A stretch of DNA of 55,937 nucleotides from a virus. Lineage: Duplodnaviria; Heunggongvirae; Uroviricota; Caudoviricetes. Numbering within the stretch: position 1 is the stretch's first letter; every line of letters starts with the position of its first letter. The stretch lies in the IMG/VR virus record IMGVR_UViG_2872192773_000004; one strand, 5' to 3'. Made by a program: the position numbers. Positions 1 through 6,000 of this stretch are shown in pieces.

Positions 1-3000
1 TTATTTGATTTCAATTTTGTCCCACTCCCTGCCTCTGTCATCACGATACTGTGATGCCATGGTGTCCGACTTGTGCCCGAGAAGATGTTGAGCAAACTTA
101 TCGCTTATCTGCTTCTCATAGAGTCTTGCAGACAAACTGCGCAACTCGTGAAAGGTAGGTGGATCCCCTTCGAAGGAAAGACCTGATGCTTTTCGTGCGC
201 GCATAAAATACCTTGATACTGTGCCGGATGAAAGCGGTTCACGACGAGTAGATGCAATTATGGTTTCTCCGCCAAGAATCTCTTTGCATTTATCAAGTGT
301 TTCCTTCATTGATATCCCGAGAGCATCAACATGCAATGTTGTAGGGATGGCAATTTTTACGCCTGTTTTGCTTTGCTCGACATAAAGATATCCATCTACG
401 ATATCAGACCACTTCATTTCGCATAAATCACCAACTCGTTGCCCGGTAACAACAGCCAGTTCCATTGCAAGTCTGAGCCAACATGGTGATGATTCTGCTG
501 CTTGATAAATTTTCAGGTATTCGTCAGCCGTAAGTCTTGATCTCCTTACCTCTGATTTTGCTGCGCGAGTGGCAGCGACCGGGTTTGTTGTTATATGGCC
601 TTCAGCTATTGCCTCTCGGAATGCATCGCTCAGTGTTGATCTGATTAACTTGGCTGATGCCGCCTTGCCCTCGTCTATGTATCCATTGAGCATTGCCGCA
701 ATTTCTTTTGTGGTGATGTCTTCAAGTGGAGCATCAGGCAGCCCCCTCCTTATTGCTTTAATTTTGCTCATGTAATTTATGAGTGTCTTCTGCTTGATTC
801 CTCTGCTGGCGAGGATTTTTTCGTAGCGATCAAGCCATGAATGTAACGTAACAGAATTATCACTGTTGATTCTCGCTGTCAGAGGCTTGTGTTTGTGTCC
901 TGAAAATAACTCAATGTTGGCCTGTATAGCTTCAGTGATTGAGGTGTACTGGCAATAGCGGACACTACCATTTGTTCTTTTTTTAAGCAGTCATCTGATG
1001 ATATTTTTCCCTGAAGGCTGCCGGGGAGATATTCCCCAGACGAGAGTGACGACGCTGACGATTGTAGAAAATCTCAATGTATTCCCGTATTACTGAGATG
1101 GCTTCATCCCGGTTATTAAAACGATAGTGGCTCAGGCTCTCATTTTTCAGCGTTCCCCAGAAGCTTTCCATCGGAGCGTTGTCGTAACAGTTACCTTTAC
1201 GCGACATTGATGTTTTCAGACCAGACTGCTCCTGTATGACCCGGTAATCGTATGCGCAGTACTGTGAACCTCGATCAGAGTGGTGGATTAGCCCGGCAGG
1301 TGGGCGCTGGCTCCTGAGCGCCATAAACAGGGCTTTACCTGTCAGCTCTTTTGTCATGCGCTCTCCCATGGCGTAGCCGACAATTTCGCACGTATAAACA
1401 TCTTTGATGCCAGCAACATACGTCAGGTCCGCCACCCAGACCTGATTTGGTGCTGTAGGAGCGAACGTCTGGTTCAGCAGATTTGGCGCAACTGGCAGAT
1501 TGTGGTTCGGGTTCGTAGTCGCTCTGAACTTGCGTTTCTGCTTACAGCGTAGCCTTAGCTCCTTACGAAGACATGCCAGTCGGTCACGACCAACGATGAT
1601 GCCATTCTCTGCCAGCTCCGTCTGGAGCCGCCGGGTTCCATATGTTTCGCGAGTGCGGATATGTGCCACCTTAATCTCCAGTTTTAGCCGCTCATCACTT
1701 TGTTTTCTGTCTGAGGGTTCATGCTGTACCCAGTTGTAATAACCGCTCCTGGATACACCAAATACCTGACACATCGCTTCAATGGGAAATTGTTGTCGCC
1801 ATTGTTCGATTAACGCGTATTTTTCAGCGACTCCTGTGCAAAATACGCTGTTGCTTTTTTTAATATATCTCGCTCAAGGCGAGCTTCATTTAACGCCTTA
1901 CGCAGTTGCAGAATTTCAGATTCCAGTTCAGCCACCGTGCGGAAACCAGGAGTACCGAGCCCTTTTCTGGCGGCGGTAACCCATTGTCCTAAAGTGCCTT
2001 CAGGAAGAGATAATCGGGAAGCGCCTTCACTGATCGAAAGTTGATTTTCAAGAACCGTTCTGACAGCTTCGGCTTTGAACTCTTTAGAGTAACGTTGGGT
2101 TTTTCTGCTCATTATTAGCTCCTTCTGATGCCATTCTATTTCAGGAAGGAGTGTCCGTTAAACTCAGGCTACCTCACAGGTCAGTCCATCACAGTGGGCT
2201 GCGATTGGTGTGCTGGGAAGTCTGCTTCTGGGGCTTCTGACTTATCTGACGAATCTGTATTTCAAAATAAGAGAAGATAAGCGTAAGGCTGCGAGAGGTG
2301 AATAATGTCGCCATCATTACGCAAGGCTGTTGCAGTTGCTATTGGTGGCGGGGCTGTTGCTATAGCATCTGTGTTAATCACTGGCCCAGGTGGTAACGAT
2401 GGTCTGGAATGAAGTGGCACACTGAATTTGGCCACCTGAACAGAGGTGATATGCTCACCTCAGAACAACACAGGTGCTCCAATGAAAAAAAGAAATTTTA
2501 GCGCAGAGTTTAAACGCGAATCCGCTCAACTGGTTGTTGACCAGAAATACACGGTGGCAGATGCCGCCAAAGCTATGGATGTTGGCCTTTCCACAATGAC
2601 AAGATGGGTCAAACAACTGCGTGATGAGCGTCAGGGCAAAACACCAAAAGCCTCCCCCATTACCCCGGAACAAATTGAAATCCGTGAGCTCAGGAAAAAG
2701 CTACAACGCATTGAAATGGAGAATGAAATATTAAAAAAGGCTACCGCGCTCTTGATGTCAGACTCCCTGAACAGTTCTCGATAATCGGGAAACTCAGAGC
2801 GCATTATCCTGTGGTCACACTCTGCCATGTGTTCGGGGTTCATCGCAGCAGCTACAGATACTGGAAAAACCGTCCTGAAAAACCAGACGGCAGACGGGCT
2901 GTATTACGCAGTCAGGTACTTGAGCTACATGGCATCAGCCACGGTTCGGCCGGAGCAAGAAGCATCGCCACAATGGCAACCCGGAGAGGCTACCAGATGG

Positions 3001-6000
3001 GACGCTGGCTTGCTGGCAGGCTCATGAAAGAGCTGGGGCTGGTCAGCTGTCAGCAGCCGACTCACCGGTATAAACGTGGTGGTCATGAACATGTTGCTAT
3101 CCCTAACTACCTTGAAAGGCAGTTCGCCGTGACCGAGCCAAATCAGGTGTGGTGCGGTGATGTGACCTATATCTGGACGGGTAAGCGCTGGGCGTACCTC
3201 GCCGTTGTTCTCGACCTGTTCGCAAGAAAACCAGTGGGCTGGGCCATGTCGTTCTCGCCGGACAGCAGGCTCACCATGAAAGCGCTGGAAATGGCATGGG
3301 AAACCCGTGGTAAGCCCGGCGGGGTGATGTTCCACAGCGATCAGGGCAGTCATTATACGAGCAGGCAGTTCCGGCAGTTATTGTGGCGATACCAGATCAG
3401 ACAGAGTATGAGCCGGCGCGGAAACTGCTGGGATAACAGCCCAATGGAACGCTTCTTCAGGAGTCTGAAGAACGAATGGATGCCGGTGGTGGGTTACGTA
3501 AGCTTCAGCGAGGCAGCTCACGCCATAACGGACTATATCGTTGGATATTACAGTGCACTAAGACCGCACGAATATAACGGTGGGTTACCCCCAAACGAAT
3601 CGGAAAATCGATACTGGAAAAACTCTAACTCGGTGGCCAGTTTTTGTTGACCACTTCAAAAGCTGAAAATGATGCTCTTCGGCGCAAGCTTGATAATGGT
3701 GGTCGGGTGCTCGTCAAAGGAAAATGCCCTGTGCCATCCTCAGCCGAAACCTCCAGCGCCTCCGGCATGGGCAATGATGCCACCGTCGAACTCTCTCCAG
3801 TTGCTGGACGAAACGTTCTCGGTATCCGGGACGGAATCATCAGCGACCAGACAGCATTGAGAATGCTTCAGGAGTACATCAGGATCCAATGCCTTGGGGG
3901 GTAGCGGTAATTTTACTCATTATCCTTCAAATCAGATTCTGTTGTCAGAGGAATGGGGGAAGCTGGATTCGCAAGAGCTTTTTATGGGCAGTTTAGCTAA
4001 AAAAAGGCAACACGAAGCTAAAACTACCAACATAAAGTGCTGACCAGCTAGCAGCTGAAATCAGACTCACTGTATACACTTTCACTGGATGAAGTTGCAA
4101 CATTCCTGCCACCAAAGGAGCAATGTAACGCAGCACGGCGATAAAGCGCGAAGTGAAAAGTATTGACACAGAGTTATTTTGCAACTGAAGGCGAACCCGT
4201 TCTATTGTATTGGAACGGCTCGATATTATACATGCAAGTTGAGGGATATGCCCAATTATTATACCAAGATGGTAATTAACGATAGTACCGCACCATGCGC
4301 CACTCATGACCGTGATTCCAGCTTCCCATGGTGAAAGAGTCGTCTTGCTGACTGTAATTACAGTGGCCATCATAATTGATGCTGGTGGCAATATCGCCGA
4401 AATGAGTAAAGTGGATTTTGTGAACGCTATTATAAAAAGAAGCCCCCATAGGCGATATGGATGAAGTACAAAATAGTTCATCAAAGCATTTATCCACTCC
4501 ATCAATGTCTTTCCTTCTGTGAATTTTTCTTTGCTATTTAACCGTGATACGACTTAATTTAGGCTTAAACACCTTACATTTACAAGGTACTCCTGTGGGG
4601 GGCCCTGCCACGGAGCGTCGCAGGAGTGAGTGATGAGGAAGAATTAAAGCAACCTATTGTGACAGGCAGCGATAACAGTAAATCACAGGAAGCATAATCA
4701 TGGCAAAACCGGACTGGGAGGCCATCGAATCGGCATACCGGGCCGGAGTCCTTAGCCTCCGTGATATAGGCGAGAAATACGGCGTTACAGAAGGGGCTAT
4801 CAGGAAGAGGGCCAAAAAGCTTGATTGGGCACGCAGTGGCGGTACGCAGGTTTGCAAAAATGGTACGCAAAAAAGGAAAGTGCGTACCAGCAGAAAGCCT
4901 GCCATTACTGGCCTTACACAAAAAAGTACGCAACTAAAAACAGAATCTACACCGGATACGAAACCGATACGCGGAATGCGTACCGATCCCCCGACTAACC
5001 CATTCCAACCCGGTAACCAGCAGGCATTAAAACACGGTGGTTATGCCCGTCGCCTTCTGCTCAAAGATGAGGTGATAGAGGACGCTAAAGCGTTGACGCT
5101 CGAGGACGAATTATTTCGCCTTCGTGCTAACAACCTTGTCGCTGCAGAGAATATTGGTCGGTGGTTGGTGTCGCTGGAAGATGCTAATGGGGACCAGGAA
5201 AGGAAGATGCTGATTGAAAATATCAGCGCCGCCGAGAAAGCAATGATGCGCAATACAGTTCGTATTGAGTCCATCGTTGGCACGCTTGCGACGGTAGGAA
5301 AAATATTTGCTGATACAGCCTACCGCAAGGCCGCCACTGATAAGGTGTCTCTGGAGGCTGATCGTCTTCGCCGTGATGCAGGTATTGATGATTGAAGTGG
5401 TCAACAAAAACTGGCCACCGAGTTAGAGTTTTTCCAGTATCGATTTTCCGATTCGTTTGGGGGTAACCCACCGTTATATTCGTGCGGTCTTAGTGCACTG
5501 TAATATCCAACGATATAGTCCGTTATGGCGTGAGCTGCCTCGCTGAAGCTTACGTAACCCACCACCGGCATCCATTCGTTCTTTAGACTCCTGAAGAAGC
5601 GTTCCATTGGGCTGTTATCCCAGCAGTTTCCGCGCCGGCTCATACTCTGTCTGATCTGGTATCGCCACAATAACTGCCGGAACTGCCTGCTCGTATAATG
5701 ACTGCCCTGATCGCTGTGGAACATCACCCCGCCGGGCTTACCACGGGTTTCCCATGCCATTTCCAGCGCTTTCATGGTGAGCCTGCTGTCCGGCGAGAAC
5801 GACATGGCCCAGCCCACTGGTTTTCTTGCGAACAGGTCGAGAACAACGGCGAGGTACGCCCAGCGCTTACCCGTCCAGATATAGGTCACATCACCGCACC
5901 ACACCTGATTTGGCTCGGTCACGGCGAACTGCCTTTCAAGGTAGTTAGGGATAGCAACATGTTCATGACCACCACGTTTATACCGGTGAGTCGGCTGCTG

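Follow-up and report, generated by a model that had tools for sequence, protein, structure and literature searches.

Insertion-sequence joints between an integrase gene and lysis-gene fragments mark a probable composite prophage at att-lambda of Shigella flexneri

The subject of this report is the left end of a 55,937-nt stretch of viral DNA (Caudoviricetes; IMG/VR record IMGVR_UViG_2872192773_000004), referred to throughout as the window. Two insertion sequences (IS), a copy of IS600 and a copy of IS911, lie here between a truncated integrase gene and fragments of phage lysis genes, an arrangement that an earlier note on this DNA had described as a pair of deletion junctions. The features concerned are listed below; A and B designate two prophages whose relatives are described further on, and the last entry is a cassette used for comparison.

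1-939, minus strand: int', lambda-type tyrosine integrase gene of prophage B, the prophage at att-lambda; open for 312 codons plus stop, without xis.
940-2176, minus strand: IS600 copy 1; 1237 bp, with a 27-bp in-frame deletion in orfB relative to the 1264-bp copy 2; no target duplication.
2177-2305, plus strand: 'S, class II (P21-type) holin gene of prophage A, codons 30-71 plus stop; PF04971 positions 26-63 of 64, E=1e-19.
2305-2412, plus strand: R', RrrD/P21-type endolysin gene, first 35 codons; 2305-2409 equal to the first 105 nt of an annotated rrrD (L002 23009-23113).
2410-3658, plus strand: IS911 copy 1; 1249 bp, no target duplication, in place of 614 bp.
3659-3904, plus strand: 'Rz, codons 76-156 plus stop; PF03245 positions 48-125.
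3669-3860, plus strand: Rz1 lipoprotein gene, complete and embedded in 'Rz, starting 10 bp past the end of IS911; PF06085, E=3e-21.
25628-27539, plus strand: intact lysis cassette of prophage B, with a P21-type holin, a 209-amino acid (aa) open reading frame (ORF) of no family, a 177-aa lysozyme and Rz.

Labels such as L001 and L002 denote comparison loci, with L002 supplying the coordinates for prophage A and L006 those for prophage B. Copies of IS600 were recognized by a length of about 1264 bp, inverted repeats TGAGGT...ACCTCA and two overlapping transposase frames, and a simple insertion of this element duplicates 3 bp. The interval 940-2176 can be aligned over its whole length with 1264-bp copies (99.5-100% identity), save for the 27-bp internal deletion, and carries orfA (100 aa) and orfB (263 aa) on the minus strand; RefSeq labels near-identical copies 'IS3-like element IS600 family transposase'. 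For IS911, the marks were a length of about 1250 bp, the tips TGAAGTGG...CCACTTCA and an orfA/orfB frameshift arrangement, again with a 3-bp duplication at simple insertion. IS911 copy 1 is 100% identical to copy 3 and one base from copy 2 (99.92%), and RefSeq assigns it to the IS911 family. Self-comparison of the window yields four IS600 copies (940-2176; 15203-16466; 27922-28976, truncated; 30287-31370, truncated and inverted) and three IS911 copies (2410-3658; 5393-6641, inverted; 17102-18350). As the earlier note had stated, neither IS600 copy 1 (flanks gat / cag) nor IS911 copy 1 (gaa / aaa, which are separated by 614 bp where the A-type cassette is complete) has a 3-bp target duplication. 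Within the same window, IS600 copy 2 is flanked by GCT on both sides and IS911 copy 2 by GAT, and these served as internal controls. Exchange of flanks among the IS600 and IS911 copies of the window was considered as the cause of the lost duplications and rejected, there being zero cross-matching 3-bp flanks.

The integrase fragment is matched by PF00589 (Phage_integrase), by PF22022, and by PF09003 (Arm-DNA-binding) at profile positions 50-74 of 74 only. Over 941 bp it is 100% identical to the intact 356-codon int at the ybhC/att-lambda site of Escherichia coli FDAARGOS_944, and from this match the first 43 codons are gone, most of the arm-binding domain among them. The tyrosine recombinase domains, with the arm-binding domain truncated, and the presence of ybhC upstream in L010 identify the gene as a lambda-type integrase at att-lambda. 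The host genes upstream in L010, a locus 100% identical to the window, are pgl, ybhD, ybhH, ybhI, ybhJ and ybhC.

The interval from IS600 to IS911 is exactly 233 bp (2177-2409) and is 100% identical to L002 22881-23113. The junction of truncated int with the 3' end of a holin gene, and the 233 bp that follow it before IS911, stand as first described. The interval holds 42 holin codons (2177-2302) with their stop at 2303-2305, and the coding part of the endolysin fragment (2305-2409), whose stop codon TGA is donated by the tip of IS911. On the other side of IS911, the Rz fragment comprises the last 81 of 156 codons (coding 3659-3901). This is about half of the gene, not the last third given previously; the count of 35 endolysin codons was correct, and the completeness of Rz1 had been overlooked. 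Holin, endolysin and Rz with its embedded Rz1 occur in the canonical order of a P21-type lysis cassette, with overlapping stop and start codons, and secretion of the signal-anchor-release type is predicted for the endolysin from its family. The exact 35-aa ORF of R' is found in 15 contigs, which comprise complete chromosomes (four to 8) and short contigs.

A complete cassette collinear with these fragments occurs in an E. coli O121 strain and in FDAARGOS_944, both of which carry ipaH genes, IS600 and IS911. It runs from transfer RNA (tRNA) genes through a class II holin, the lysozyme RrrD, Rz, DedA (on the opposite strand) and a small-terminase-like gene to a PBSX-type large terminase. Beyond IS911 copy 1, positions 3659-5392 of the window are 99.8% identical to L002 23728-25461, and the 614 bp lost at this element correspond to L002 23114-23727, that is, to endolysin codons 36-165 and Rz codons 1-75. 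Identity of 99.8-100% to a complete holin-RrrD-Rz-DedA-terS cassette, and collinearity with it, make a second prophage type, A, the owner of these pieces, as the earlier note had allowed in one of its two alternatives. Alignment with the intact cassette of prophage B is restricted to holin (2177-2292 against 25715-25830, 98.3%) and Rz (3660-3894 against 27298-27532, 98.7%), and the endolysin fragment shows no similarity, in DNA or protein, to the 177-aa endolysin at 26542; the near-identity of the outer fragments and the divergence of the endolysin had both been seen before. A resemblance limited to holin and Rz is no more than the usual mosaicism of lambdoid phages.

The 209-aa ORF (25847-26476), which stands between holin and endolysin of the intact cassette, has no Pfam match and no A-type counterpart; a partial 'YdfR family protein' is annotated at the same place, between holin and lysozyme, in FDAARGOS_944. 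Four tRNA genes (25025-25335) lie just upstream of the intact holin: one with a CAT anticodon, annotated as tRNA-Ile in related prophages, followed by Arg-TCT, Thr-TGT and Gly-TCC. Since this cluster, at 98.8% identity, also precedes the A-type cassette in relatives, it offers a recombination target common to both phages.

The relationship of the two prophages is seen in FDAARGOS_944, where prophage A is intact between ybhA and pgl, prophage B lies at ybhC/att-lambda in the same orientation, and one 8-kb host segment separates A (upstream) from B. Prophage A has the P21-type lysis cassette and the PBSX-type terminase, and carries ipaH. Its integrase gene is different from the int of the window, with zero nucleotide match. 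Material from both prophages makes up the window to the right of 'Rz, as follows.

3993-4505, minus strand: DedA/VTT-domain membrane protein gene, cargo of prophage A downstream of Rz; PF09335; 'DedA family protein' in the collinear L001 and L002.
4700-5392, plus strand: small-terminase-like gene of prophage A, first 231 of 254 codons, cut by IS911 copy 2; collinear with L002 24769-25461.
5393-6641, minus strand: IS911 copy 2; simple insertion with duplication GAT, the flanks overlapping at L002 25459-25461.
6642-7334, plus strand: end of the small-terminase-like gene and first 222 codons of the PBSX-type large terminase gene of prophage A; L002 25459-26151, 99.7%; PF04466.
7335-8665, plus strand: IS2; 1331 bp, without 5-bp duplication (gcaat / ctgag); IS2-family in RefSeq.
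8666-17101, plus strand: immunity, replication and nin region of prophage A; L002 14001-20543 (99.3%) and 20540-21174 (100%).
15203-16466, within the early region of prophage A: IS600 copy 2; 1264 bp, simple insertion, duplication GCT.
17102-18350, plus strand: IS911 copy 3; no duplication, joining the Q-like gene of prophage A to ninB of prophage B.
18351-18951, plus strand: ninB-ninE of prophage B, which resumes here; 97.7% identical to L006 42272-42873; PF05772.

Thus int' of prophage B (1-939) is followed, after IS600 (940-2176), by late genes of prophage A (2177-7334, with IS911 copies 1 and 2 inside), and after IS2 (7335-8665) by the early region of prophage A (8666-17101, with IS600 copy 2 inside). 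The two blocks of the latter (8666-15203, equivalent to L002 14001-20543, and 16467-17101, equivalent to L002 20540-21174) encode DUF1391, an HTH repressor, Cro, YdaT, ydaV, QueH and hokD, and extend to a truncated DUF1133 Q-like gene, where IS911 copy 3 (17102-18350) begins. From 18351 onward come ninB-ninE of prophage B and then the remainder of a lambda-like prophage, which after nin has replication genes, Q, tRNAs, the intact lysis cassette, a gpA-type terminase, tail genes and ipaH. About 12 kb of prophage A DNA, permuted so that late genes (2177-7334) stand ahead of early ones (8666-17101), therefore occupies the place of the 16-kb early region of prophage B. With its five IS copies the block spans 940-18350, and IS600 and IS911 form its edges. 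The stretch replaced lies between int codon 43 and ninB (L006 26239-42271) and contained the rest of int, xis, exo/bet/gam, immunity and replication genes. The earlier statement that the whole early region is missing thus holds for prophage B, the owner of int, and fails for the phage that supplied the lysis fragments, whose early region is present at 8666-17101.

We consider it probable, at about 0.8, that this stretch forms the left-hand end of a prophage, composite and dead, that lies at att-lambda, between ybhC and ybhB, of S. flexneri, and that its joints are recombination scars with no function of their own. IS600 copy 1 combines parts of two IS600 insertions, one formerly in int and one in the holin gene, and is therefore a recombinant, not the product of an IS-adjacent deletion. 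The earlier note had taken it for a deletion junction within one prophage, and in this respect must be corrected, int being from prophage B and the lysis fragments from prophage A. The assignment follows from a complementary half-joint in the holin gene, from the occurrence of the int'-IS600 joint with other partners, and from the mosaic sequence of the element. In L029 (CP026772) and L033, the 5' part of the holin gene runs ...GGATCAG into IS600 and ends at L002 22883, and in the window the sequence leaving IS600, CAGGTCAG, starts at 22881; since CAG is common to both, a single simple insertion in holin codon 30 accounts for the pair. The int'-IS600 joint is identical to that of the window in S. 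flexneri SFBU1023 and in ECMA0423, but runs there into DNA adjoining pflA. Finally, IS600 copy 1 is a mosaic, having at alignment column 52 the T of the int-linked type together with the 27-bp deletion of the holin-linked type, which has C at that column. The missing duplication is what is expected of a recombinant between two insertions, and is not evidence against the identity of the element as IS600.

The 27-bp in-frame deletion, which leaves orfB with 263 instead of 272 codons, is common to copies 1 and 3 of the window and to the holin-linked copies (L029, L033 13077-14313); copies 2 and 4 of the window lack it, as do the int-linked copies. The deletion may be the mark of a defective lineage of IS600 that recombination or gene conversion has spread. 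A holin'-IS600 joint in L019 was examined as a possible partner and rejected, since it lies at a different position (L002 22982).

The other two joints that bring together separate parts of the prophages have comparable origins. The large terminase gene carries an IS2 with GCAAT duplicated in L007 and L009 (CP097828 and CP026772), where portal and head genes of prophage A follow, and an IS2 with CTGAG duplicated lies upstream of the early region of prophage A in nine of ten genome contexts (L018, L027-L033, L035, L036; CP026788 and AE014073 included). The IS2 of the window, whose flanks are one of each, is a recombinant of these two, and the order terL'-IS2-early region occurs, among the genomes compared, in that of the window only. 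IS911 copy 3 is likewise a recombinant between separate IS911 insertions: L029, L033 and L035 contain a simple insertion in the DUF1133 Q-like gene, whose flanks duplicate L002 21172-21174 (GTG) and which is followed by the rest of Q, tRNAs and holin', and L027 and L033 have an IS911 site in the toprim gene of prophage B.

The origin of IS911 copy 1 is less direct. In L018 (CP026788) the right inverted repeat (IRR) of an IS911 is followed by TTTCGCATTGG, the reverse complement of an Rz' that ends at L002 23730; in the window the IRR is followed by AAAGCTG, starting at 23728. The shared AAA points to an IS911 that once stood in Rz, in the orientation opposite to that of the IS911 at endolysin codon 35, the other half of which would take the form R'...GAA, IS911, GAAGGTGTC. 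Loss of the 614-bp spacer and of one copy between the identical 8-bp tips CCACTTCA yields the window sequence exactly, and on this sequence evidence IS911 copy 1 probably derives from such an inverted pair that collapsed with the 614-bp loss.

Comparison of the tip joints (L009 11342-11365, L018 18874-18900 as reverse complement, and the R' joint of L012, against window 2401-2420, 3646-3670 and 6629-6650) gives a similar picture elsewhere. Endolysin codon 35 is joined to the left inverted repeat (IRL) in most genomes and to the IRR in L012; the GAT of the small-terminase site adjoins the IRL in the window and the IRR in L009 (IRR followed by GATGGC); and the AAA triplet of Rz has both its sides joined to an IRR. 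Homologous recombination cannot swap IRL for IRR at one flank nucleotide. These joints are consistent with collapse of inverted IS911 pairs, and collapse of the pair formed by copies 1 and 2 would account for those in L009 and L012. We advance only tentatively, and as a proposition rather less likely to be right than wrong, the general form of this idea: that inverted IS911 pairs repeatedly collapse to a single copy at the identical 8-bp tips, with removal of the spacer and one copy, at three positions in S. flexneri, and that the process is driven by transposase, the joints being natural chromosomal footprints of an end-targeted pathway. Simple models based on IS911 figure-eight chemistry failed to yield the observed tip-to-tip joints, and inversion between the oppositely oriented copies 1 and 2 was rejected on finding the intervening segment collinear with the reference.

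Recombination inside an IS cannot alter the joints between IS ends and flanks, which can hence be traced across genomes, and on this principle a history of the locus may be proposed. IS600 would have inserted independently after codon 43 of the prophage B int and in codon 30 of the prophage A holin gene, and RecA-type recombination between the two would have produced int'-IS600-'holin. With prophage A upstream of prophage B, this order would belong to the circle-type molecule that a crossover between direct repeats excises, so that its retention in the chromosome would have needed at least one re-insertion, duplication or inversion besides deletions. Recombination of IS2 with IS2 would next have joined terL' to the early region of prophage A, and the IS911 in the Q-like gene would have recombined with an IS911 in prophage B. 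The IS911 at endolysin codon 35 and the oppositely oriented IS911 in Rz (duplication AAA) would have collapsed to one, removing the 614 bp.

Several points weigh against this reading, or against parts of it. The reciprocal joint IS600-int-5', expected in a holin'-IS600-int-5' product, where it would read IS600 followed by GAT or ATT and TGCGATTCGCC, was not found in the comparison loci or in a metagenome scan. A first set of those loci and the metagenome collection contained neither this joint nor holin'-IS600, the latter being present in L029 and L033. Elsewhere the holin-linked IS600 continues into prophage B DNA at L006 38822, not into int-5', and the direct reciprocal product is thus unobserved. 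Such absence is expected if the product was later deleted, and does not exclude recombination. At IS911 copy 1, a plain IS911-adjacent deletion from codon 35 gives the same sequence, and collapse of a pair requires a hypothetical non-homologous or transposase-mediated step. Several orders and numbers of events fit the data, in that re-insertion of a circle, unequal sister exchange with deletions, and inversion followed by re-inversion all give the same joints. The location of prophage A between ybhA and pgl in the direct ancestor of the strain is taken from relatives. Integration of a whole prophage A circle into prophage B through IS600 by IS600 recombination is compatible with the joints and not distinguishable from other multi-step routes, and we do not assert it.

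A simpler account would have a single lambdoid prophage lose its early region by an IS600-adjacent deletion running from int to holin, and the 614 bp by an IS911-adjacent deletion, with the intact cassette contributed by another prophage or by duplication. The absence of duplications at both elements and the orientation of the flanks, as in a normal prophage map, agree with it, and the flanks of IS911 copy 1, collinear and 614 bp apart in the intact cassette, make an adjacent deletion sequence-compatible for that element alone. However, the relative in which both prophages occur has int in one and the lysis genes in the other, each prophage with an integrase and an attachment site of its own; the early region supposed to be deleted, that of the phage behind the lysis fragments, is present downstream; and the complementary holin'-IS600 with its shared CAG, the other partners of int'-IS600 and the mosaic IS600 copy 1 all speak against it. 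We regard the single-prophage account as unlikely; comparison with the less rearranged FDAARGOS_944, a check suggested with the original observation, contradicts it for IS600 and supports the second prophage. The other alternative then raised, that the fragments arose from the lysis module of the window itself by duplication and divergence, draws on the 98.3% and 98.7% identity of holin and Rz to the intact copies. It is highly improbable and was rejected, as the fragments are closer (99.8-100%) to the other complete cassette, with which they remain collinear through DedA and the terminase genes in L001 and L002, and the A-type cassette has another type of endolysin, to which R' belongs and the intact endolysin bears no resemblance, and no 209-aa ORF.

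Misassembly deserves mention because four IS600 and three IS911 copies at 99-100% identity are a classic source of false joins. Nevertheless, a 483-bp short-read contig (L011, 10 samples) spans the end of IS600, the 233 bp and the start of IS911, and four independent complete genomes carry the same joints. Among them is S. flexneri 94-3007 (CP024473), serotype 7b, whose sequence agrees with that of the window at 100% throughout the 12.4 kb examined; its assembly combined PacBio and Illumina reads and was checked by optical mapping (PMC5754485). This evidence together excludes misassembly, and we give errors of this kind almost no credence. The joints IS600-'S, R'-IS911 and IS911-'Rz are absent from E. 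coli loci L001-L003 and from L004 and L005, and no complete E. coli genome with both joints was found.

The locus has continued to change among S. flexneri strains. In AUSMDU00008355 (LR213452; L008; PMC9376355), the joint R'-IS911-ninB shows loss of 3659-18350 (14.7 kb), the locus being otherwise 100% identical over the stretches compared; this deletion was made by recombination between IS911 copies 1 and 3. CP026772 (L009) has R'-IS911-GAT-'terS with a 3-kb loss, CP097828 has kept head genes of prophage A, and in CP026772 the block from pgl to int'-IS600-'S together with head genes is inverted relative to the early region of prophage A. The right end of prophage A (DUF4376-ipaHb) still adjoins pgl in CP026772 and CP026810 (L042, L045).

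Other genomes suggest a larger rearrangement. The int'-IS600 joint leads into pflA-side DNA in SFBU1023, CP026788 and AE014073, all other S. flexneri, and in ECMA0423 (L004 4927-8000, L005 557-3000, L028/L032 10001-20207). In CP026788, AE014073 and ECMA0423 the early region of prophage A ends in the order Q', IS911, reverse Rz', an IS2 remnant and IS66, beyond which lie an MFS gene, an isochorismatase gene and genes with domains of the dimethyl sulphoxide (DMSO) reductase type (DmsC, Fer4, molybdopterin). Taken together, the pflA-side and DMSO-reductase-side joints suggest that IS elements mediated a large rearrangement of the chromosome between att-lambda and a region whose gene content is like that of dms-pfl in E. 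coli K-12.

Other features of the window are recorded here for completeness. A search of a phage collection for a named relative of the late region of prophage A gave only matches of 82-84% to Klebsiella temperate phages; in these phages, at about 84% DNA identity, the matching 2.1-kb stretch has an annotated 'terminase small subunit' beside the large subunit. Between ninE and the start (19657) of 99.8% identity to an O121 prophage at mlrA, the interval 18952-19656 holds two minus-strand genes, a Gp49/HTH_3 (HigB/HigA-like) pair. The replication genes (DnaC-like, DnaB-type helicase) come after the nin genes, an unusual order, and this arrangement suggests a further mosaic junction, here without an IS. 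Within 27922-31370, two IS600 copies truncated at almost the same internal point face each other around a 1306-bp IS3-family element (28981-30286), which RefSeq calls 'IS3 family transposase', noting an AL1L pseudoknot, and which is flanked by a 3-bp duplication, GTG, inside IS600. In size and ends this element resembles IS629/IS3411. A 4-bp overlap (TCCT) at 28969-28980 links IS600 to its own reverse complement, and the joint looks like a fold-back or template switch. In the head region, a 501-aa ORF (35345-36850) contains two 94-nt direct repeats (36309-36552), 73% identical and 150 nt apart. Not far from where the prophage ends on the right, an E3 ligase effector of the ipaH type, with LRR_TTSS and NEL domains, is encoded at 53115-54878 (minus strand), and a 158-aa PBP-family gene (55461-55937, minus strand) closes the window at a position where, on the K-12 map, ybhB would be expected. 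Given these two genes, the window covers the whole composite prophage between its att-lambda flanks.

The locus is a well-resolved instance of IS600, IS911 and IS2 merging and eroding adjacent prophages in S. flexneri. The integrase, the excisionase and one lysis cassette have been destroyed here, leaving the ipaH-bearing element unable to excise and locked into the chromosome. The remaining IS copies keep producing deletions, of which the loss of 3659-18350 is an example. For annotators, the int and lysis fragments should not be taken as one truncated prophage, and tools for prophage boundaries and prophage typing will misjudge composite regions of this kind. The allelic series, comprising the 14.7-kb loss in AUSMDU00008355, the head genes of CP097828 and the 3-kb loss in CP026772, provides handy markers for lineage typing, and the same series is a natural data set for the resolution of inverted IS911 pairs.

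Decay and rearrangement of Shigella genomes through expansion of IS1, IS2, IS4, IS600 and IS911, with deletions and inversions between IS copies, are well documented (PMC7373316, PMC1550401), and IS-mediated inversions have been described in S. flexneri in particular (PMC1550401). The present locus shares with this process the IS families and the host, joints without duplications, strain-variable alleles and the conversion of the affected genes to pseudogenes, and as a whole is an ordinary product of it, already known in kind. It differs in that the substrates are two neighbouring prophages and the outcome is a permuted insertion, not a simple deletion or inversion. Our literature searches, which were not exhaustive, turned up nothing specific to this locus.

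McDonough and Butterton are reported to have described, in 1999, an stx region flanked by IS600 that undergoes amplification and deletion, within a defective lambdoid prophage of Shigella dysenteriae 1. There, as here, IS600 in a decayed lambdoid prophage served as substrate for homologous recombination leading to duplications and deletions; the species and locus are others, toxin genes have no part in our case, and tandem amplification is not seen in the window. In comparison with lysis cassettes of the phage 21 or DLP12 type (S21, R21/RrrD, Rz/Rz1), the fragments match the families in canonical order, but only holin codons 30-71, endolysin codons 1-35 and Rz codons 76-156 are left, and a cassette reduced to such parts cannot work. 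The cryptic lambdoid prophages of E. coli K-12 (DLP12, Rac and Qin) are truncated and IS-interrupted, and like the prophage of the window they are defective and chromosomally fixed after loss of integrase, excision or lysis functions; the IS load here is much higher (nine IS copies in 31 kb), and two prophages have merged.

What thread of novelty the locus offers, and it is a mild one, lies solely in the recurrent tip-to-tip collapse of inverted IS911 pairs, which if true would give IS3-family elements a general route for erasing the DNA between nearby copies. A second, end-targeted mode of IS911 insertion is reported (Loot et al., 2002, as cited in PMC9333248). This pathway has so far been described in plasmid assays. 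The collapse of an inverted pair to a single copy at exact tips, as proposed for the endolysin and Rz insertions, is to be compared both with this IR-targeted pathway of IS911 and with the precise and nearly precise excision of Tn10 and Tn5. Tn10 excision involves repeats situated at the base of a stem, whereas here they would be the 8-bp tips of two oppositely oriented IS copies.

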